Below are positions 9,815 to 17,524 of a stretch of DNA of 64,000 bases, piece after piece. Source of the stretch: Escherichia coli (GTDB taxonomy: Bacteria > Pseudomonadota > Gammaproteobacteria > Enterobacterales > Enterobacteriaceae); the NCBI RefSeq assembly GCF_003018115.1, contig NZ_CP027457.1, one strand, 5' to 3'. Under the pieces are notes generated by a model, which made no database searches, had not been told where the DNA came from, and saw nothing but the letters and a program-made list of their open reading frames with translations. The position numbers were made by a program, and so were the translations under genes. The first letter of the stretch is position 1; the number at the start of each line of letters is the position of its first letter.

Positions 9815-11677
9815 TCACGACAGCTCAGGAGGGTTATTCCTGATGTCATCTTCACAAATAATGGTTAACGCATCATATATCATTCTGCGTCTGTTCCTGT
9901 TTTCGGCCTTATCGCCATACAACATCATCACATTTTTAATTTCATCGACCGGTGATTTCACATAGTGAACTAATACACCAAGCTTCTCAACACATTGCAG
10001 TAAAGTATATTTCTTACTGCCTGTGAAAAGCCCTATCATAGTTTCTTTACGTTCGCGACTGGATAATACTTTGTTTTCCATAATGACTTCAGCCAGCGTC
10101 TTACCATCATAAACATACTCTTTATCTATCAGAATATTTATCTTATCCAGCACCTTCTCTACGTCATCAAGCAAACCTGTAATATATGGGGGCGCAATAT
10201 ATGGTTTCGTACTGATCTTTTCAAGCATACAATTATACATCTTAATAACACGCATCAGGGTAAAATTGTTCGCATCATACTGTATTTCACCCTCCTTATA
10301 TACAGGTTCAATAAGTGGTATTGTTTCAATAAATGCATCCTGATAGGCTTTTACATGGTCAAGCCAATAAAACAACGAGCCATACTTTATATTTTTTCTA
10401 TTTACTTTAACCTCCAGTGCTGTCCGAAGCAACGATAATGCCCCCCTGACATATCCTGAAGGTAATTCACCAAACAATCCTTTTCTTTCCATGTCATCAT
10501 AATGCTGCAGCACATCATTAATTTTATTTTTCCTTATCAGACAAATGTACACCGCAAGTGTTTCGTAGCAGCTGGTCACATGAACAGCCTCATTCTGCAA
10601 CTGCCCAAAATAGCTTATAATCTTTTTCAGATATGCGTCATCACAACCATTCTTATCATTAATATTAAATACAAGATCTTTCAGACGGGAAATATATTCC
10701 TGAGATTTATCATCAAGTGAAACACTATAACGAGACAATGTTCCTTCTGCACTGTTTTCAAACTTATAAAACATTTCCAGTAATTTTTTTGCATAAGGCG
10801 TTGTATCAAAGCTGGTAAAGTCATAAAGATATTGCGCAGCGTAACCATACAAACCATGAATCCAGAGTCCTTCTCTCACCAACACTCTGAGATAATATGC
10901 AAGGTTTTTAAGTATCTTCGTCTTTCGTTGTATATCAAGTAAGACACTTAATGAATAAAATGCATTATAGAATTTATCAATATTCCTGAGCACTTTCTCC
11001 AGTTCATCCTTATCCAGCTTCTTCTCCCGGTAATCCTTTTTATATTCATTTTTGATAGCCATGATATATTGTTGCATCAGGCTCTTGCTTTTCCCGTTAT
11101 CCTTCCGTATAGTTCCTGTATATTTCCCCAGAGCATACAGCTTTCCATTTTCATGAAAATCTTCCTTGTTGAATCCCAGTTCAGCCAGATATTCCCGAAG
11201 ATAACGTTTAACAGCAGCTTCATCGCTTTCTGTATCAGCGTGATCAAGACAAGGGCAATACGATTTCTGTAAAAAATTATAAATATGATAATAAAAAGCA
11301 GAGTCATTCTCTGGTCTGTATGTATTATACATATCTACAACAAGAAAAATAACCCCAAAAGTGCGCAGACAATAGCTGCGAAGGAATTCAGGTTTTAGTG
11401 TGGAATGCACTGGATAAGAATTCATCATGTAATAAAAATGTTCATATCGGGCATATATGATCCGCCGTTGCTCCTGACTGAACACCCCTTCAGCATCAAT
11501 AATACGACTGATCTCATTATAACGTTGATCCCAGAATTTTTGATGCATTTCAAAATTGGTACTCTTCCGCTTGTGTGCCGGATTCTCGCCTTCCTTAAAC
11601 AACCCCAAAACAGTACAAATATCATACAACAGATTTGTAAATGTGCGCATATGCTGTGCTCTCCGGTTGGTTTGCAT
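9815..11677 (-). CDS. Hypothetical 620-aa protein, AT-rich orphan gene (alternative start at 11650 with better RBS gives 611 aa)
   Basis: Long uninterrupted ORF in otherwise AT-rich DNA; no Walker A, HUH, or other motif recognised; helix-rich K/E/Y-rich composition. Confidence 0.7.
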   Translation of the reverse strand: MQTNRRAQHMRTFTNLLYDICTVLGLFKEGENPAHKRKSTNFEMHQKFWDQRYNEISRIIDAEGVFSQEQRRIIYARYEHFYYMMNSYPVHSTLKPEFLRSYCLRTFGVIFLVVDMYNTYRPENDSAFYYHIYNFLQKSYCPCLDHADTESDEAAVKRYLREYLAELGFNKEDFHENGKLYALGKYTGTIRKDNGKSKSLMQQYIMAIKNEYKKDYREKKLDKDELEKVLRNIDKFYNAFYSLSVLLDIQRKTKILKNLAYYLRVLVREGLWIHGLYGYAAQYLYDFTSFDTTPYAKKLLEMFYKFENSAEGTLSRYSVSLDDKSQEYISRLKDLVFNINDKNGCDDAYLKKIISYFGQLQNEAVHVTSCYETLAVYICLIRKNKINDVLQHYDDMERKGLFGELPSGYVRGALSLLRTALEVKVNRKNIKYGSLFYWLDHVKAYQDAFIETIPLIEPVYKEGEIQYDANNFTLMRVIKMYNCMLEKISTKPYIAPPYITGLLDDVEKVLDKINILIDKEYVYDGKTLAEVIMENKVLSSRERKETMIGLFTGSKKYTLLQCVEKLGVLVHYVKSPVDEIKNVMMLYGDKAENRNRRRMIYDALTIICEDDIRNNPPELS

Positions 11678-11732
11678 TTTATCGCAGAGGACATTCTGAG
11701 CTTAACGTATCAAACTGACACAACGACATGCA

Positions 11733-12038
11733 ATGCATATGGAGAACAATATGTCAAATCAAACCGGACAGCTTTACACGCCTTCACGCATCCTGCGTAT
11801 GGCTGAACTTACCCGACTGCTGGGTATATCAAGATCTACTATTTACGTGAAAATAAATCCGGCCTCGAAATACCACGACCCTACCTTTCCCAAACCAATA
11901 AGGCTTGGTAGTGCATCCGTAGGCTGGCGGGCATCTGCCATCGATGAGTGGCTGATGTTACATACGGCACCAGCCTGGTCTGAACCTGAAAACAAACGAA
12001 AGGAACTTAATGATGACGACAAAACTATCACTCCCTGA
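11733..12038 (+). CDS. alpA: AlpA-family phage-type transcriptional regulator (start may be 11751)
   Basis: MAELTRLLGISRSTIY...FPKPIRLGSASVGWRASAIDEWL matches AlpA HTH pattern (RLxEVxxxTGLSRSTIYRLxxxGxFPKPxKLGxRAVGWxxSEIxxWI). Confidence 0.7.
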   Translation: MHMENNMSNQTGQLYTPSRILRMAELTRLLGISRSTIYVKINPASKYHDPTFPKPIRLGSASVGWRASAIDEWLMLHTAPAWSEPENKRKELNDDDKTITP

Positions 12039-13539
12039 ACTTGACACAACTAAACTGCCTGACAGGTGCCAGGCATTACTTGATGAAATGCATGAAGAAA
12101 CAGGAATACGCCGTGAAATACTTCTGTCTGTTATGCTGACGGTCATGGCTGCCTCGGTCCAGGATACGCATGAAGTTGAACTTTCCGGAGGGCAACGTAC
12201 CAGCCTTCAGATATTTATGTGTCTTTCATCAGCATCAGGCAGTGGAAAAACCTCTGCCTGCGCAAAATTAATCGCTCCTGTTCATGAAACAGAAGAAGAA
12301 CTACATCAGGCATATATCGACGATAAAAAAAACTATGACCGAATGATGGAAATGTGGACAACAGATAAAAAAATCCTGGAGCGGAGATATAAAAAGGAAA
12401 TTGAAAGATCCCCGGAAAATGCTGCTGCTGCACGAGCAGCACTTGAAAAGTGTATAGCAAATAAACCCGAACCTCCCGTACAACAGGTTCTCATCGTGAA
12501 TGACGCGACACCAGAAGGGATAGCTTTGAAACTCAGCCAGTCACCCTCTCTTCTGTTGCTGTCTGATGAAGGAGGTACTATTCTGGATAAGCGTTTCGAA
12601 CGCAAATCGGCACTGTACAACACATTATGGAGTGGGCAACCAGTCAACGTTGAACGGGCATCCAGACCCGGGTTCCGGCTGAATGATGTCCGTCTCACTA
12701 TACTTATACTGACTCAACCGGTAATATTTAATAAGTTTTTTACTCTCACTGGCGATCAGATCCGGGGCAATGGCTTTCTGGCCCGGTTGCTATTTTGCGA
12801 ACCCGGAGCAATTAAAATAATGACGACAGAACCGCATACTGCCACTCCTGTTGTGACGCAACAATGTGCAAGCTGTTTTCGTAAGAAAAGTTTTGGCAGT
12901 CAGATCAGAGACTCTCTGAGAGCATCCAGAGAAAGACGTGCAAAAAGTAAAGAGCGCATCTGCATGACATTATCAAATGCAGCATCCCGCGCACTGGAGC
13001 GCTTTCACAAAGAAAATATGGATACTGTCAGACAGAATCCTCATATGGGTACTTTTGAAGACATTATTGTCAGAAAAAGAGAGCAGGTTGTCAGGATAGC
13101 AGCACTTCTGGAACTGGAGAAAGATCCAGACTCGACAGTAATAACGCTGGAAAGTACTAATAGCGCCATTTATCTCATTGAATTTTATTTCAAGCATCTT
13201 ATATATAAACTTGAATCCCTTCGGGAAATATCCCCGGCTGAGAAACTTGATAAATGGCTTCAGAAAAGAATTATCACAACAGCAGGTTACATATTCCAGA
13301 AAAGTTATATTTTACAATATGCCCCATATGCTCTCAGGAAAAAATGTGTTCTGGATGAAGCACTTGACATACTGGCGGAACAAAGGAAAATAAGGATTGA
13401 TGATAACCTGGTTGTTTATATAGGAAACACGATTACACCATCCGAACTGGCAAAAAAACTAAATATTCCTGCATTCGATGCCGGAGTTTTCATTTGTGAT
13501 CATCAAAACATACTGAAGTATCACCGAAACAGACTATAG
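12010..13539 (+). CDS. P-loop NTPase-like protein in the primase/helicase-like slot of P4/CP4-57-type elements (YfjI-like)
   Basis: 509-aa ORF overlapping alpA 3' end; near-Walker-A SASGSGKTS and hhhhDEGG Walker-B-like motif. Confidence 0.5.
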   Translation: MMTTKLSLPELDTTKLPDRCQALLDEMHEETGIRREILLSVMLTVMAASVQDTHEVELSGGQRTSLQIFMCLSSASGSGKTSACAKLIAPVHETEEELHQAYIDDKKNYDRMMEMWTTDKKILERRYKKEIERSPENAAAARAALEKCIANKPEPPVQQVLIVNDATPEGIALKLSQSPSLLLLSDEGGTILDKRFERKSALYNTLWSGQPVNVERASRPGFRLNDVRLTILILTQPVIFNKFFTLTGDQIRGNGFLARLLFCEPGAIKIMTTEPHTATPVVTQQCASCFRKKSFGSQIRDSLRASRERRAKSKERICMTLSNAASRALERFHKENMDTVRQNPHMGTFEDIIVRKREQVVRIAALLELEKDPDSTVITLESTNSAIYLIEFYFKHLIYKLESLREISPAEKLDKWLQKRIITTAGYIFQKSYILQYAPYALRKKCVLDEALDILAEQRKIRIDDNLVVYIGNTITPSELAKKLNIPAFDAGVFICDHQNILKYHRNRL

Positions 13540-13708
13540 ATACTATCGGACAAAAAATAAATTATCACAAGTGTATTATTCGTTATAATAATGAATAATC
13601 GTTATCTGAGTGCAATGCCAGGTTTTCATTACGAACTGGCATTGCATTTATTTTTCAAAAAAGAAAGCAGTAACCATTTGGCTACTCTGAGTATGCCAGT
13701 CCATGAAA

Positions 13709-14926
13709 CTAAGCGAATTCCTTAGTGTTTTTAGCAAGTTGAGACATCACATAATCCGCCCATGCCTGCATCATCGGTACACGCTGCTCCAGTAGATCAG
13801 TACGATGATATGCCGCCTCAACCTTATTTTTCAGCGTATGAGCGAGCGCCCTTTCCGCCAGATCCCGCGAATACCCCTGTTCACTACACCAGTCCCTGAA
13901 TGTTGAGCGAAAACCATGTGCCGTGGCAACTCGCCCCGGTATATCACTGATGGCTTTCTTTTTACGCAGAAAACTCGTCAACACCATATCTGAAAGGATC
14001 TGCTGCTTTCTGGGAGAAGGAAACACTAGTTCATCATGCAAACCACGTATATTTTCCAGAATGTGAATGGCCTGCCGGGATAAAGGAACACGATGCTGTA
14101 TCCTGGCTTTCATTCTTTCTGCGGGTATAGTCCATATCCGCTTATGAAAATCAATTTCAGCCCAGCGCATTCCCCTGGCTTCGCCCGAGCGGGTTGCTGT
14201 AAGTATCACCATTAATAACAGTGCCCGGGTAACATTATAAGGTTCATCTGTATACACACTGGTCGCCACAAAAAGCGGTAACTGCCTCCAGGGCATTGCG
14301 GGTTGGTGTTCATCACGTCCTCTTGTCTGCTGAGGAAGCAAATGGTCAACCACATCAACAGGGTTTGCCACACAAAAACCGTGCGCCCATCCCCACTGCA
14401 TAACAACATGAATGCGCTGTTTAACCCGGCTTGCCGTTTCTGACAAGGTTAACCAGACTGGACGCAGTGTTTCTGCCACGTCCGCAGCCGTAATCGAATC
14501 CAGCGTTTTTGCTCCCAGTTGAGGAAACGCGTAATTTTCAAGCGTCGATAACCACTGCCTGACATGCTTTGGATTTTCCCATCCCGGTGACAATTCAGCA
14601 TGTACACGCCTGGCTGCATCGGCAAATGTTGGGATAACAACTTTTTCAGCTTCAGCCTTTTTAATCTCCAGTGGGTCATCACCTGCAGCAAGTTGCTCTC
14701 GCATTATCCGGGCAGCACGTGCAGCTTCAGCAATACTGACCTCAGGATAAGTTCCCAATCCAGCATTACGCCTTTTTTGTGTCACCGGACTTACATAACG
14801 AAAAACCCATTTACCCCGCCCTTTTACTGAAGAAGGATGAAGAGTCAGTCCTGTAATTCCCCCATGGGGCAATGGTTTGTCATCAGGTTTGATATGCCTT
14901 GCTTTAGTATCCGTCAATACTGCCAT
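13709..14926 (-). CDS. int: P4-type tyrosine integrase
   Basis: 405-aa ORF, N-terminus MAVLTDTKARHIKP... typical of P4-family integrases; C-terminal R...HGFRSTFRDW...Y catalytic motifs. Confidence 0.9.
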   Translation of the reverse strand: MAVLTDTKARHIKPDDKPLPHGGITGLTLHPSSVKGRGKWVFRYVSPVTQKRRNAGLGTYPEVSIAEAARAARIMREQLAAGDDPLEIKKAEAEKVVIPTFADAARRVHAELSPGWENPKHVRQWLSTLENYAFPQLGAKTLDSITAADVAETLRPVWLTLSETASRVKQRIHVVMQWGWAHGFCVANPVDVVDHLLPQQTRGRDEHQPAMPWRQLPLFVATSVYTDEPYNVTRALLLMVILTATRSGEARGMRWAEIDFHKRIWTIPAERMKARIQHRVPLSRQAIHILENIRGLHDELVFPSPRKQQILSDMVLTSFLRKKKAISDIPGRVATAHGFRSTFRDWCSEQGYSRDLAERALAHTLKNKVEAAYHRTDLLEQRVPMMQAWADYVMSQLAKNTKEFA

Positions 14927-15085
14927 ACGCTAATTCCTGTTACTCTGGTATGCCATCCAGTATGCCATTAGTCTCTCGCTTCACTAAGAATACATTAGAT
15001 AATATCGGACAGCAAAAAGTGTAATACATTGTTTATAATGAAATTATATAACACCCCCGGATTAAGTCAGATTTATTTCAGGCGG

Positions 15086-15100
15086 CCCCCCTCACCGCCA
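15086..15100 (+). other. tRNA-Ser 3'-end-like att core remnant (CCCCCCTCACCGCCA)
   Basis: 15-nt string ending in CCA matches the recalled 3' acceptor end of tRNA-Ser (serW/serX type); upstream sequence is AT-rich and not a tRNA body; ~160 bp from integrase start. Confidence 0.55.
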
Positions 15101-15112
15101 TATTTAAAGAAG

Positions 15113-15142
15113 AGCTCGTACGAAAGTACGGGCTTTTTTTTC
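15113..15142 (+). terminator. Rho-independent terminator hairpin (GAAA tetraloop plus T8), possibly bidirectional
   Basis: gctcgtac-gaaa-gtacgggc followed by tttttttt; preceded by A-rich tract on the other strand; lies just after the tRNA-like fragment and downstream of the 15192..15878 minus-strand gene. Confidence 0.55.
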
Positions 15143-15191
15143 GTATATTGCACACACCGGGGGGATGAGAATCCCCGACCGGGATACTTAG

Positions 15192-15878
15192 TTAATGCAA
15201 CGGTTCACTCTTTGTCGCCGCGACTAATGGGCGAATTTTGTCACGAGTCTCCCAGACCGGAGGGATTTCCTCCAATTTAGTGACAGAAGCTCGTACAAAA
15301 GGCACCCGTGCAAGAGTCATAATCGTATCCAACCAACGGTCACGAATAATGCGATCCGCCCTTTCATGACTCGGGTCATCCAGCTCAATAACACAGACTA
15401 TTTTATTGTTCTTCTTTGAAACCAGAACATAATCCATTGCCATGCCATTATAAATTGCAAAGAAACGCTTTCTTTCTTCTTCGCTAAACTCAGGTTGTTC
15501 TGGAAAGTTGATCAAGCGCCCCAGAGAGACCTGGCAATGGATATGACAATAATGTCCAAACCATTTTTCCAGATTATCGAAATACATTTTTTCACAACGC
15601 GTGATTAACCACTCTTTTCTTTCCAATAAAATACCTTCGGCAACCATTCCCTGAAATAACTCATCTCGCTCTTGCCAACGAGAGTCACGATAGGTTTTCT
15701 GCGGTATATAGCTCCTTGTCGACGCCTTAGCGGCAGGGGAAGTTGCAGATGAAGGGACTGGTTGCGATTTAGCGATGATTACCGATGAGGCAACTTTTCG
15801 GAGTGTCAATTTTCTGGCAACAGCAAAACCGGCGATAAATGCAATTGTCAAACAAGTTACAAAAGACATAAAGCTCAT
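15192..15878 (-). CDS. Hypothetical membrane-anchored protein, DUF2726-like (restriction-endonuclease-like fold) C-terminal domain
   Basis: 228-aa ORF with N-terminal TM helix; C-terminal region ...DYVLVSKKNNKIVCVIELDDPSH... resembles DUF2726 (recalled, unverified). Confidence 0.45.
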   Translation of the reverse strand: MSFMSFVTCLTIAFIAGFAVARKLTLRKVASSVIIAKSQPVPSSATSPAAKASTRSYIPQKTYRDSRWQERDELFQGMVAEGILLERKEWLITRCEKMYFDNLEKWFGHYCHIHCQVSLGRLINFPEQPEFSEEERKRFFAIYNGMAMDYVLVSKKNNKIVCVIELDDPSHERADRIIRDRWLDTIMTLARVPFVRASVTKLEEIPPVWETRDKIRPLVAATKSEPLH

Positions 15879-16410
15879 AATTAATGTTCACCTATCCATG
15901 TTGATTATATTTCATTACCAATGTTACTCGCTGAAGCGTGTTACATGCCAACAATGCAACGATCAATATATAGTTAGTATCATGTTTTGATTATTACAAC
16001 CATCCCTATTTAGCCATTGCGGCTTGCCTTCCACAAAAAAACAACAACACACAATATTAGCCAAAGAATTAATTAAGATTAACCTTACATTTATAATATT
16101 ATCCCTAAAGAATAAATCAGAGGAATATATTCGGTGTTAAACAGTCAGTCAAAGTATGGCCCATTGTTGATTAAACCTCATAAGCAAAATTGGCACCAGA
16201 TCTCCTGTACAGGTTGAATGGCCGAAAAAAGATAGGCAGATGCTCATTTTTTTGGCTTCTGGAAGAAAAACTCTCCGCGCTGGCAGTATTACACTGGTCT
16301 GATGCTATGACGAAAAATGCCTGGTAAGAGTATCTAAACCAGACTCCAGTTCAGCTTATCAACACCCTCAAAGTCGCCCCCCTGAACGCTAACCTGAAGT
16401 GAAAATCTGT

Positions 16411-16441
16411 TGAAATAAAACAAAGCCCGGTTCGCCCGGGC
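16411..16441 (-). terminator. phoH rho-independent terminator
   Basis: gcccgg-ttcg-cccggg hairpin followed on minus strand by TTTGTTTTATTT. Confidence 0.6.
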
Positions 16442-16459
16442 TCTGCACCGATAATACAC

Positions 16460-17524
16460 TTAACTGTATGCATGTAGCGTACGTTGGCAAAGTGCCGAAC
16501 GTACGCAATCCTCTTTACCGAATCGGACGATCCCGACCATTTCATCTTCTTCGAAACGTTCCAGTGCGTCACTTAATCCGGAGTGCACGCCGCGAGGTAA
16601 ATCGCATTGCGTGATATCACCGTTGACGATAACCGTCACGTTCTCCCCGAGGCGGGTTAAAAACATTTTCATTTGCGCGGCAGTCACATTCTGCGCCTCG
16701 TCAAGAATGACGACTGCATTTTCAAAGGTACGTCCACGCATATAGGCGAACGGCGCAATTTCCACCTTCCCTATTTCCGGTCGCAGGCAGTACTGCATAA
16801 AGGAAGCCCCTAAGCGCCGGACCAGCACGTCGTATACCGGGCGAAAATAGGGAGCAAACTTTTCTGCGATATCTCCAGGTAAGAAGCCAAGATCTTCATC
16901 GGCTTGCAGAACTGGACGGGTGACGATAATCCTGTCGACATCCTTATGTATCAGGGCCTCTGCCGCTTTTGCTGCGCTGATCCAGGTTTTTCCGCACCCG
17001 GCTTCGCCCGTGGCGAATATCAGCTGCTTACTCTCAATAGCCTTCAGATAGTGCAATTGCGCTTCATTTCGCGCGAGGATGGGCGAGGTATCGCGACTGT
17101 CGCGGGCCATACCAATGGCTTCTACGCCGCTCATCTGCACAAGCGAGGTGACCGATTCTTCTTCACGCTGCTTATGGCTGCGCGAATCCCGTCTCAGCAC
17201 ACGTTTTGCCTCGCGACGAGCTTTGATCACTGCTTTTTGTCTTCCCATGGAGAGCACCTTGAGTTGTTTGTATTCATCACACGCGCCGTTGGCAGCGCGA
17301 TTATGCGCACGAACATCAGAGGGTTGGCTTCCTTGTAAGCCATAGTTTGCTTTTGGATAAAATGCCGAAAAACGGCTACGCGCACCGTTTACGGCGTCGG
17401 TAACACATGAAAAGAAAGGATGAGGTTGAAAATGCAAAGTGACGAGATGACTACCGGAGGAGAAAACTCCGCGAGTGGTGGCGCGTTGATTATCTAAAAC
17501 ATGTCCAGTACAGGACGTTACCAT
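16460..17524 (-). CDS. phoH: PhoH, phosphate-starvation-inducible ATPase
   Basis: 354-aa ORF with Walker A GEAGCGKT; matches recalled K-12 PhoH. Confidence 0.9.
   Translation of the reverse strand: MVTSCTGHVLDNQRATTRGVFSSGSHLVTLHFQPHPFFSCVTDAVNGARSRFSAFYPKANYGLQGSQPSDVRAHNRAANGACDEYKQLKVLSMGRQKAVIKARREAKRVLRRDSRSHKQREEESVTSLVQMSGVEAIGMARDSRDTSPILARNEAQLHYLKAIESKQLIFATGEAGCGKTWISAAKAAEALIHKDVDRIIVTRPVLQADEDLGFLPGDIAEKFAPYFRPVYDVLVRRLGASFMQYCLRPEIGKVEIAPFAYMRGRTFENAVVILDEAQNVTAAQMKMFLTRLGENVTVIVNGDITQCDLPRGVHSGLSDALERFEEDEMVGIVRFGKEDCVRSALCQRTLHAYS

Follow-up and report, generated by a model that had tools for sequence, protein, structure and literature searches.

What is the role of the one long gene that stands back to back with alpA in a P4-integrase island of Escherichia coli, and does it belong to the anti-phage cargo of the island or to its backbone? 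The gene, called X here, occupies positions 9815..11650 on the minus strand of the window (the whole 64-kb stretch of DNA that was analysed) and encodes a 611-aa all-alpha protein of an uncharacterised family, according to the list of open reading frames, the PGAP annotation, homologues, their alignment and an AF2 model. The longest form in the list (9815..11677, minus strand) has 620 aa; the ATG at 11650, to which the earlier note had ascribed the better ribosome-binding site, is the start of the 611-aa form annotated by PGAP (WP_050866913.1, 'hypothetical protein'), gives an N-terminus that can be aligned with all homologues, and is preceded by GGAG about 9 nt upstream. An open frame of 611 codons would arise by chance with a probability of about 1e-19 (our own arithmetic, at about 36% GC with stops at about 7% of codons), and the dN/dS of 0.17-0.23 between X alleles indicates purifying selection, and thus a real gene. 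The GC content is 0.34-0.36 across positions 8500-11500 versus about 0.5 in the flanks. The composition of X (GC 0.37; 9.0% K, 8.7% Y, 7.4% E) and the all-alpha model agree with its first description as a gene of low GC encoding a K-, E- and Y-rich, helix-like protein. A foreign or separate origin, as a reading of the low GC, was rejected because X and the DUF3987 gene beside it have equal GC3 in 8/8 loci; the low GC results from amino-acid composition.

X is an all-alpha protein of an uncharacterised family, without a known fold match or catalytic motif. Its AF2 model consists of 29 helices (pLDDT 84, pTM 0.81). No significant match was found in Pfam (searched with the single sequence and with an 18-member alignment), PADLOC, NCBIfam, PHROGs or PDB sequences (searched by phmmer and by profile), in keeping with the earlier failure to recognise any motif in the sequence. 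Profile searches of Pfam and PADLOC had been proposed as checks, and they assign X to no known family: PADLOC-DB v2 contains none for X at E values up to 1, and nothing at E values up to 0.1 for three other members of the X family or for YfjH, the protein encoded opposite alpA in CP4-57. No nuclease, recombinase, HUH, membrane, NTPase or enzymatic feature was found in the sequence, the alignment or the AF2 model; the invariant or near-invariant residues are N, K, Y, P, G and L only, which, together with the complete lack of domain matches, leads us to read X as non-enzymatic. Conservation is concentrated in residues 1-120 at the N-terminus and 391-540 at the C-terminus, the centre (241-360) is hypervariable, and the motifs LPxGY, IKNGSL, ANNxTIMRSIKxYN and GLLDxVE..KIN stand out in the family alignment. 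The label of orphan is not supported: the family of X comprises about 15 clusters of full-length proteins at 50% identity, with structural relatives in Aeromonas and Burkholderia. When a large protein database was searched again with the X alignment, E. coli copies only and no domain fusions were returned, and a literature search with the X accessions and gene names found nothing. There is a weak, partial match to TPR-type regulators (RRNPP; NprR, AimR). No HTH family of Pfam matches X or the 18 aligned members, the best score being that of HTH_73 in one member (E = 0.085); the absence of an HTH match is compatible with a novel DNA-binding module in X.

The neighbours of X constitute, by PGAP and Pfam annotation, a CP4-57-type module (integrase, AlpA, DUF3987 protein and YagK/YfjJ-type HUH protein), and PGAP and PHROG agree with the identities that had been proposed for them. 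The alpA gene (11751..12038, plus strand) encodes an AlpA/Vis-type excisionase-like regulator of 95 aa (PHROG 'excisionase and transcriptional regulator') that is 37% identical to P4 Vis and 50% identical to K-12 AlpA. Its 3' end overlaps the start of the gene for a DUF3987 (YfjI-type) helicase/primase-like replication protein (12010..13539, plus strand; PHROG DNA helicase, E = 1e-39), which is followed by a P4-type tyrosine integrase gene (13709..14926, minus strand; PHROG integrase) whose product is 32% identical to P4 Int. On the other side of X lies an inovirus-Gp2 or YagK/YfjJ-type HUH Rep-like gene (7907..8500, minus strand), the HUH assignment of which rests on PGAP in the window. No att direct repeats of at least 12 nt were found within the fetched flanks, and no tRNA gene was found next to int, save a tmRNA gene in the Xenorhabdus locus.

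X and alpA are divergent, as described previously, and the control region between their homology-supported starts (11650 and 11751) measures 100 bp (11651..11750) rather than the 55 bp first given. The spacing of 55 bp is valid only with both open reading frames at their maximum length. The length of this region varies between 98 and 103 bp in 8 loci, and its X-proximal block (approximately 11661-11699) is conserved across lineages, reading in most of them TGaGATACT, then TGTCCnCG, an A-run and GGAAACCAACCGGAG (the ribosome-binding site). TGaGATACT resembles an extended -10 element and would provide X with a constitutive-looking promoter. A sigma-54-type promoter in the control region was dismissed by eye; dyads that might serve as operators are just 5-6 bp long, vary in position and are unconvincing.

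The earlier note assigned X to the variable cargo slot of the island. However, in 12/12 homologous loci that were fetched by protein search (X 25-38% identical), a member of the same family lies directly opposite alpA-DUF3987 at a distance of about 100 bp, and variable defence genes begin past the hairpin that follows X. A third E. coli lineage also has X in this alpA-adjacent slot, across an IS1 remnant that parts X from alpA by about 1.1 kb (two loci), so the homologues occupy the equivalent position elsewhere, as the note had suggested checking. X is present in 233 E. coli genomes, versus 230 for the matching alpA-DUF3987 lineage, and the identity classes agree. About 23% of complete E. coli genomes have a homologue of X, and the gene is intact, labelled 'hypothetical protein', in Nissle 1917, O157:H7, O104:H4 and E2348/69 among others; in the third lineage it is full length in 1031/1037 genomes, where the copies are recent (at least 99% identity in 915). 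A search of 50,697 phage records found no copy, and none occurs in genuine plasmids or away from alpA (the profile search of genome contigs for the family was done with a subset of the alignment). In the canonical layout, int, orf157, a yfjJ-like HUH gene, the DUF3987 helicase gene and alpA lie on one side and X on the other. These comparisons show that X belongs to the core of a CP4-57-family integrative island and is fixed in its position.

CP4-57 of E. coli K-12, in the order intA, yfjH, alpA, yfjI, yfjJ, then abpBA/yfjM/rnlAB, then yfjP, shares with the X elements a P4-type integrase, AlpA, a DUF3987 YfjI-type protein, a YagK/YfjJ HUH protein, a gene divergent from alpA and a defence hotspot that ends at yfjP; the third E. 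coli lineage has exactly this gene order, with X replacing yfjH. Nevertheless, the 318-aa product of yfjH has no homology to X (hhalign of profile against sequence, probability 0.1), CP4-57 has no palindrome with GCTA units (GCTAC-type), and the module proteins are only 22-52% identical (by BLASTP to the K-12 proteins, 45-52% for AlpA, 23-24% for YfjI and 32-34% for IntA; YfjJ of the relatives is 32% identical to K-12 YfjJ). In addition, the X-alpA-yfjI-yfjJ block is inverted in canonical X elements, which turns X towards the hotspot. In the E. coli lineage to which the window belongs, by contrast, the HUH gene lies downstream of X.

The alleles of X are far more divergent than the genes around them. 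X is 30% identical between elements that are 90-96% identical in their other genes, and in every pair of canonical loci X is 30-38% identical, versus 66-90% for AlpA and 68-96% for YfjJ. The proposition that X diverges in parallel with DUF3987 was abandoned after inspection of the full matrix of canonical loci, in which X is always the most diverged protein. The boundary of divergence can be abrupt: between loci L006 and L010, the interval from int to alpA together with the control region has 94.7% nucleotide identity up to codon 7 of X, beyond which X is only 30% identical. Between the window and SMS-3-5, int (97.5%) and the Gp2-type HUH gene (98.4%, or 98% as rounded) are nearly identical, whereas alpA (77%) and X (72%) are not; dS is 0.85-0.91 for alpA and X versus 0.18-0.35 for the flanks, and the diverged block has sharp edges at approximately 8750 and 12050. 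The N-terminal two-thirds of the DUF3987 protein are 95-98% identical to SMS-3-5 and its C-terminus has diverged. These comparisons show that X alleles are swapped as a cassette between otherwise near-identical backbones, and their extreme divergence points to a role of X at a conflict interface.

We tentatively favour the reading that X is a non-enzymatic phage- or stress-sensing regulator that would gate the AlpA programme in the manner of Stl of the SaPIs. This reading is suggested by the fixed position of X opposite alpA, its cassette behaviour and purifying selection, its conserved ends, variable centre and non-enzymatic character, the constancy of the family beside a promiscuous hotspot, and a control region of fixed length with a conserved X-proximal half. 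As the resident-state sensor and regulator of the island, X would have an extended -10-like promoter of its own, back to back with the alpA promoter, and would keep the AlpA-driven programme of excision and replication off through its conserved modules, acting either on the control region or on AlpA; release would follow upon contact of the variable centre with a partner that derives from a phage or from stress, in the way that the SaPI master repressor Stl or a lambdoid immunity cassette works. Stl is transcribed divergently from the activation/replication operon of its island, is always present and yet extremely divergent between related islands, and is a largely helical, non-enzymatic protein that senses a phage protein and releases the island programme. 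By comparison of loci, X shares with Stl and immunity-type regulators the position divergent from the activation operon and the extreme variability of its alleles in a conserved backbone of related islands; it differs in having no sequence or fold similarity to Stl and no detectable HTH, in being more than twice as large, and in residing in a Gram-negative AlpA-type island. To our knowledge, no Stl-like repressor has been described for Gram-negative AlpA-type islands.

Several observations weigh against X as a regulator: a DNA-binding domain (HTH or other) is undetectable, 611 aa is large for a repressor, and the likeness to TPR-type regulators is slight. Loci L006 and L010 have identical control regions, AlpA proteins that are 90% identical and X proteins that are 30% identical, which implies that any contact of X with the control region or AlpA must use the conserved modules only. 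The full-length state of X in the third lineage, despite the IS1 remnant, may be a hint that X works independently of the switch architecture, although the copies in this lineage are recent.

Where the backbone of the island ends is marked by a perfect palindrome (9737..9775) located 39 nt past the X stop codon. The hairpin that the earlier note reported here is indeed perfect, with a stem of 18 bp instead of 17 bp and a loop of 3 nt (CCCTGCTAATTTTGCTAA-cca-TTAGCAAAATTAGCAGGG); the two GCTA units of each arm are spaced by 9 nt. This hairpin is the sole perfect palindrome of at least 12 bp in the 64-kb window, with a predicted energy of -31.2 kcal/mol (z = -5.5). The palindrome is kept, at a distance of 10-111 nt from X, in 11/12 of the protein-fetched loci and in three E. 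coli loci of the window's own two lineages; no such palindrome was found in the third E. coli lineage, which possesses X. Among loci, the four GCTA units are invariant and the compensatory changes are purely Watson-Crick (16 pairs, 98.6% paired, 7 with double changes, none with one-sided changes and no G-U). The hairpin of the window passes a lax terminator scan with the tail GTATTATCTA, and the stems of homologous loci have no T-run in their tails; the invariant units and the exclusively Watson-Crick covariation appear to exceed the needs of an intrinsic terminator. Most likely, the palindrome serves at the junction of backbone and cargo as a structure-dependent DNA site or as a barrier to transcription in both directions. 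Nearly all comparisons rank AlpA as the best conserved of the module's proteins, and it would be the most plausible element-encoded protein to bind the palindrome. A second copy of the palindrome occurs in locus L005 alone; neither a second copy nor iterons are supported in the tract of the window, and an Rfam search over 7000-16500 gave nothing beyond chance in the tract or the hairpin.

In three related elements, homology stops at the last base of the palindrome, to within one base, and resumes 7-8 kb further on at a yfjP-like GTPase gene; in relatives of the window element, this right flank is 80-82% identical to YfjP. The true anti-phage cargo hotspot in these three elements, which were compared directly, is the interval from the palindrome to the yfjP-like gene. 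Their cargo consists of type IIG/I restriction-modification genes with a Lamassu-like gene, a Hachiman-like helicase with PDC-S06, and PDC-S15 with a PDC-S60-like nuclease, respectively; a fourth locus carries type III restriction-modification genes with HKD-Snf2. All four elements retain X despite these differences. The earlier placement of X in a P4-integrase/CP4-57-type island is supported, as is the carriage of anti-phage genes by islands of this kind.

The main alternative, which we consider unlikely, is that X is itself a single-gene anti-phage or superinfection-exclusion determinant in the control cassette of the island, comparable to rexAB beside cI in lambda: the variable centre would recognise phage proteins and the conserved modules would carry out an abortive or blocking response. 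The hyper-divergence of the alleles under purifying selection indicates a conflict interface and would fit this reading, as would the carriage of defence genes by these islands (abpAB and rnlAB occupy the equivalent hotspot of CP4-57), the constitutive look of the putative X promoter, and the integrity of X in 1031/1037 genomes in which the IS1 remnant broke the alpA-X junction. On the other hand, four diverse family members have no PADLOC match even at E values of 0.1 or 1, no enzymatic, membrane or NTPase feature was found in X, and no other family occupies its slot, despite the free exchange of unrelated systems in the hotspot next to it. This constancy, the lack of a PADLOC match and the absence of X from phages and genuine plasmids, as well as from sites away from alpA, make a shuttling defence gene less likely.

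It is distinctly improbable that X is a late protein for exploitation of a helper phage, the counterpart of sid-delta-psu in P4, in which case it could be an external scaffold or a factor for packaging redirection or interference, and the palindrome would lie at the position of a packaging site. The topology of P4 (alpha, vis, then sid-delta-psu, cos, the gop/beta/cII hotspot, int) is matched in that a replicase, an AlpA/Vis regulator, a divergent gene set, a cis site and a defence hotspot follow in the same order; AlpA is 36-37% identical to P4 Vis and the integrase 30-32% identical to P4 Int (37% and 32% in the window); and the divergence of X alleles could track different helper phages. The PICMI satellites of Vibrionaceae, which have a small core of int, alpA and DUF3987 plus unknown genes and AlpA as key activator, illustrate that such elements can be minimal satellites, although they are integrated beside fis and their published description lists no counterpart of X, the HUH gene or the palindrome. 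However, X has no similarity to Sid, Delta or Psu and no PHROG match; no capsid, terminase or cos-related gene is present in any locus; and the X promoter, so far as its motif indicates, looks constitutive rather than activator-dependent. The proteins of the module have no BLASTP match to P4 alpha, sid, delta, psu or epsilon at E values up to 0.01, the X element falls outside the P4-like definition, and the palindrome is unrelated to P2/P4 cos. We know of no helper phage for X islands.

The remaining possibility, which is very improbable, is that X acts on the palindrome itself and binds or processes DNA in a structure-specific manner during replication, transfer or the capture of cargo at the junction with the hotspot. 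In favour of it, X adjoins the palindrome in 11/12 of the protein-fetched loci and in the three E. coli loci named above, homology between elements ends at the last base of the palindrome to within one base, the stem varies only by Watson-Crick compensation around invariant GCTA units, and the module also encodes an HUH Rep and a helicase. Against it, X alleles of 30% identity face nearly identical palindromes while the conservation of AlpA matches that of the site, the third lineage has X without such a palindrome, and X has no nuclease, HUH or recombinase motif.

Beyond the preferred reading of X as a regulator of the AlpA programme, a bolder and rather doubtful proposal is that X is the first of a new class of phage-interface proteins with an unseen fold, either the missing Stl-like sensor of Gram-negative AlpA-type islands or a new single-protein immunity determinant, and that with the palindrome it may constitute machinery or a landmark of defence-cargo exchange in a family of islands found in about a quarter of E. 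coli genomes. Islands of the CP4-57 type and P4-integrase islands are major carriers of anti-phage genes, and their control and cargo exchange are poorly understood; this locus gives handles on both, in the form of a hyper-polymorphic partner of alpA and a covarying palindrome at the border of backbone and cargo. The interval from the palindrome to yfjP is a sharply delimited place in which to mine for new defence systems.

In the window, X is followed by an AT-rich tract of about 1.3 kb (8501-9814) in which the longest open frame is 54 codons, in accordance with its previous description as free of open reading frames. The X-proximal part of the tract (9318..9736) is AT-rich, is poorly conserved (43-66% identity to SMS-3-5) and occupies the place where relatives hold defence cargo. 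The Gp2-proximal part (8501..9317) is a widespread unannotated non-coding segment: positions 8760-9317 are matched in 1578/5426 E. coli genomes, and among the 25 matches listed there is no annotated feature beneath, apart from one weak match of 97 nt. The stretch from approximately 8000 to 8750, which runs from the Gp2-type gene into this segment, is 85-97% identical to SMS-3-5, and in Nissle 1917 a segment of the 8760-9317 type sits between yfjI and Gp2. The segment 8501..9317 travels with Gp2/YagK-type genes and not with X.

The open reading frame that an earlier note placed at 9815..11677 (-) of the window is present, together with every feature described around it, some with revised dimensions. 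Translation of the uncharacterised gene X (9815..11650, minus strand) almost certainly begins with the ATG at 11650, for a 611-aa product, because the PGAP annotation begins there, a GGAG precedes it by about 9 nt, and every homologue in the alignment begins at the same aligned position. Since alpA, encoding an AlpA/Vis-type regulator, starts at 11751 and not at 11733, the two divergent genes have 100 bp between their start codons rather than about 55 bp. The low GC of the region (0.34-0.36 across 8500-11500 versus ~0.5 outside) was correctly seen, as were the ORF-free tract at 8501-9814 (longest open frame 54 codons) and the perfect hairpin following X at 9737-9775, the stem of which is 18 bp rather than 17 bp. 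The GC3 of X equals that of the adjoining DUF3987 (YfjI-type) gene in 8/8 loci; thus a separate origin is ruled out and the low GC is attributable to a K/Y/N/I/L-rich composition. X is under purifying selection (dN/dS 0.17-0.23), and these values and the frequency of intact copies exclude a functionless decaying gene. Window bases 1-15161 are ~99.95% identical to E. coli strain 2014C-4135.

X proves to be neither an orphan nor variable cargo, as had been proposed. X has 44 matches among 1.84 billion representative proteins, including ~15 full-length relatives at 23-34% identity, and Foldseek against AFDB50 adds family members in Leclercia, Pantoea, Hafnia, Salmonella, Providencia, Proteus, Edwardsiella and Citrobacter, with remoter structural relatives (TM ~0.7) in Aeromonas and Burkholderia, all labelled 'uncharacterized'. 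Searched with the single sequence or with an 18-member profile, Pfam, PADLOC, NCBIfam, PHROGs and PDB sequences gave no significant match. Conservation is modular, with residues 1-120 and 391-540 conserved and 241-360 hypervariable; the alignment yields the motifs LPxGY, IKNGSL, ANNxTIMRSIKxYN and GLLDxVE..KIN, and its invariant or near-invariant positions are N, K, Y, P, G and L, with no catalytic-looking residue among them. In all 12 loci obtained by protein search, X is in the same alpA-adjacent slot, divergent from alpA-DUF3987, with a gap of 98-103 bp in those measured; their sources include metagenomes, Kluyvera, Edwardsiella and Xenorhabdus. In canonical loci the genes run int -> orf157 -> yfjJ-like <- DUF3987 <- alpA <- / -> X -> palindrome. 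Counts in complete E. coli genomes are 233 for X and 230 for the corresponding alpA-DUF3987 lineage, with matching identity classes. X was not found in 50,697 phage records, and its few 'plasmid' matches include chromosome-sized records and one record with chromosomal genes such as ycdU and pgaA. The 3230-base contig L014, assigned to a Bacillota metagenome-assembled genome, has an alpA-X module whose X is 30% identical to that of the window, about as similar as the Enterobacterales copies; this assignment probably reflects contamination or a mis-binned contig.

The family in the slot is constant, and its alleles are hypervariable. Two of the fetched loci (L006 and L010) share 94.7% nucleotide identity from upstream of int through codon 7 of X, and their AlpA, DUF3987 and YfjJ proteins are 90%, 93% and 96% identical, versus only 30% for X; at the palindrome, identity is back to 94%. 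Pairwise identity of X among canonical loci is always 30-38%, and X is the least-conserved protein of the module (25-38%), AlpA being the best conserved in nearly all comparisons (57-90%), with YfjJ slightly higher in a few canonical pairs. Between the window and strain SMS-3-5, a diverged block with sharp edges runs from ~8750 to ~12050, comprising the tract, palindrome, X, control region and alpA, with flanks that are for the most part 91-99% identical; X and alpA have a dS of ~0.9, and int, Gp2 and DUF3987 one of 0.18-0.35. Old and very different X alleles are thus exchanged among backbones, recombining through the conserved control region plus the first X codons at one end and through the palindrome at the other. 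In the same comparison the DUF3987 gene is itself mosaic (window 12050-13850): identity is 92-98% over its N-terminal two-thirds and falls to 48-81% over its C-terminal third, the spacer and the int 3' end, pointing to another swappable segment for specificity, perhaps for DNA binding by the replicase.

The palindrome (predicted energy -31.2 kcal/mol, z = -5.5) is the only perfect palindrome of at least 12 bp in the 64-kb window. It lies 10-111 nt 3' of X in 11/12 protein-fetched loci and in the three loci representing the window's own two E. coli lineages, and was not seen elsewhere in the loci that carry it there. The four GCTA units, two per arm and spaced 9 nt apart, are invariant; 98.6% of cells in the 16 stem pairs are paired, with two-sided changes in seven pairs, one-sided changes in none and no G-U pairs, and no covariation measure was reached in any of 500 shuffles. 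This pattern, and the absence of a T-run after the stem from most copies, suggests a structure-dependent, sequence-specific site acting at the DNA level rather than a simple terminator. Four independent short-read contigs (L007, L008, L009, L011) end inside the palindrome; assemblers probably break there, and automated surveys of what follows X would consequently be biased towards long-read or complete genomes.

The real cargo site is the interval after the palindrome, not the X slot. Three backbones (L005; L012, Kluyvera; L015, Xenorhabdus) share 85-88% nucleotide identity until homology ends within one base of the palindrome's last base (L005 9873, L012 3179, L015 11852), so precisely does the palindrome mark the hotspot edge in these related elements; homology returns 7.3-8.0 kb on, at a gene whose product shares 80-82% identity with K-12 YfjP. 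The intervals carry three different defence sets: type IIG/I RM-like genes with a Lamassu-LmuB-like ATPase; a Hachiman HamB-like helicase with PDC-S06; and PDC-S15 with a PDC-S60-like nuclease. Edwardsiella (L013) has a type III RM system and an HKD-Snf2 protein at the same position, and the window has its ORF-free tract there. L005 also has a second palindrome copy (10147-10181), 308 bp past the first and bracketing a short segment, which may be a trace of cargo exchange, and a 1269-aa protein (1020-4829) with a weak CHAT-domain match and no PADLOC match, inserted between int and yfjJ, which could be a second, minor cargo site beside the integrase.

A third E. coli lineage of X (605 aa, ~28% identical to the window copy) was found in another 1037 genomes, Nissle 1917 and O157:H7 among them, and is full length in 1031/1037. 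X lies between int and alpA, at the exact position of yfjH in K-12 CP4-57; YfjH itself was rejected on comparison as a homologue. An IS1 remnant separates X from alpA by ~1.1 kb, occupying the control region in Nissle 1917 and pB39_V (L018 7900-9000, L019 9307-10000). L018, the sole locus of this lineage inspected for the palindrome, lacks it and has an ordinary short 8-bp hairpin instead.

We tentatively propose X as a candidate sensor-regulator of the island's AlpA programme, a better fit than any alternative because five properties combine: a slot never taken by another family; alleles maintained as extremely diverse under purifying selection; a predicted helical, non-enzymatic protein with conserved ends and a variable middle; a back-to-back arrangement with alpA, which encodes the island activator; and an apparent extended -10 promoter of its own (TGaGATACT). 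SaPI Stl and the lambdoid immunity cassette would share this logic. The main rival, a Rex-like defence gene within the control cassette, draws on the conflict-type divergence of the alleles and on the retention of X where the IS1 remnant broke the alpA junction, but we consider it unlikely, as the family stays constant beside a promiscuous hotspot and is absent from every other kind of mobile element. A helper-exploitation function resembling P4 late genes is improbable, and a factor acting on the palindrome slightly more so.

The island is of the CP4-57 kind, with which it has int, alpA, YfjI/DUF3987 and the YfjJ-type HUH gene in common; it lacks the alpha, sid, delta and psu that would make it P4-like. 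Its relatives also have a defence hotspot ending at yfjP, mirrored by abpAB and rnlAB between yfjJ and yfjP in CP4-57 and by the P4 hotspot beside psu-delta-sid and cos. As far as the searchable literature goes, the X family, its hypervariable-cassette behaviour and the hotspot-edge palindrome are undescribed. Att sites and island ends were looked for and not found, and no tRNA or tmRNA adjoins the P4-type integrase in the window (14927-16460) or in 8/9 related loci scanned; only Xenorhabdus (L015 4402-4765) has ssrA beside int. The islands are located at the phoH/ycdU and clpA loci.

The X-proximal part of the ORF-free tract is poorly conserved. In its Gp2-proximal part, an AT-rich non-coding segment of ~0.55 kb upstream of the Gp2/YagK-type gene (window 8760-9317, also L019 5739-6701) is present at 73-87% identity in 1578/5426 complete E. 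coli genomes and travels with Gp2/YagK-type genes, lying between yfjI and Gp2 in Nissle 1917. It has no Rfam match and, among the 25 matches listed, no annotated feature beneath it bar one weak 97-nt match; it may represent a long leader, serve the HUH Rep as an origin, or encode an RNA not yet described. Past Gp2, the island also contains two 'putative zinc ribbon' genes, of which one is frameshifted in the reference strain, with no PADLOC match for their products, and an SdiA-regulated-domain gene (window 6729-7536 and 4760-5590); further out on this side, the closely matching 2014C-4135 has lactate-utilisation genes and cdiBA. Just past int (window 15161-16417, compared with L001) the window strain departs from 2014C-4135: the order is int, a DUF2726-type gene (15192-15878) and phoH, as in E2348/69, and the ycdU, IS3, dgcT and pgaABCD of 2014C-4135 are missing at this position.
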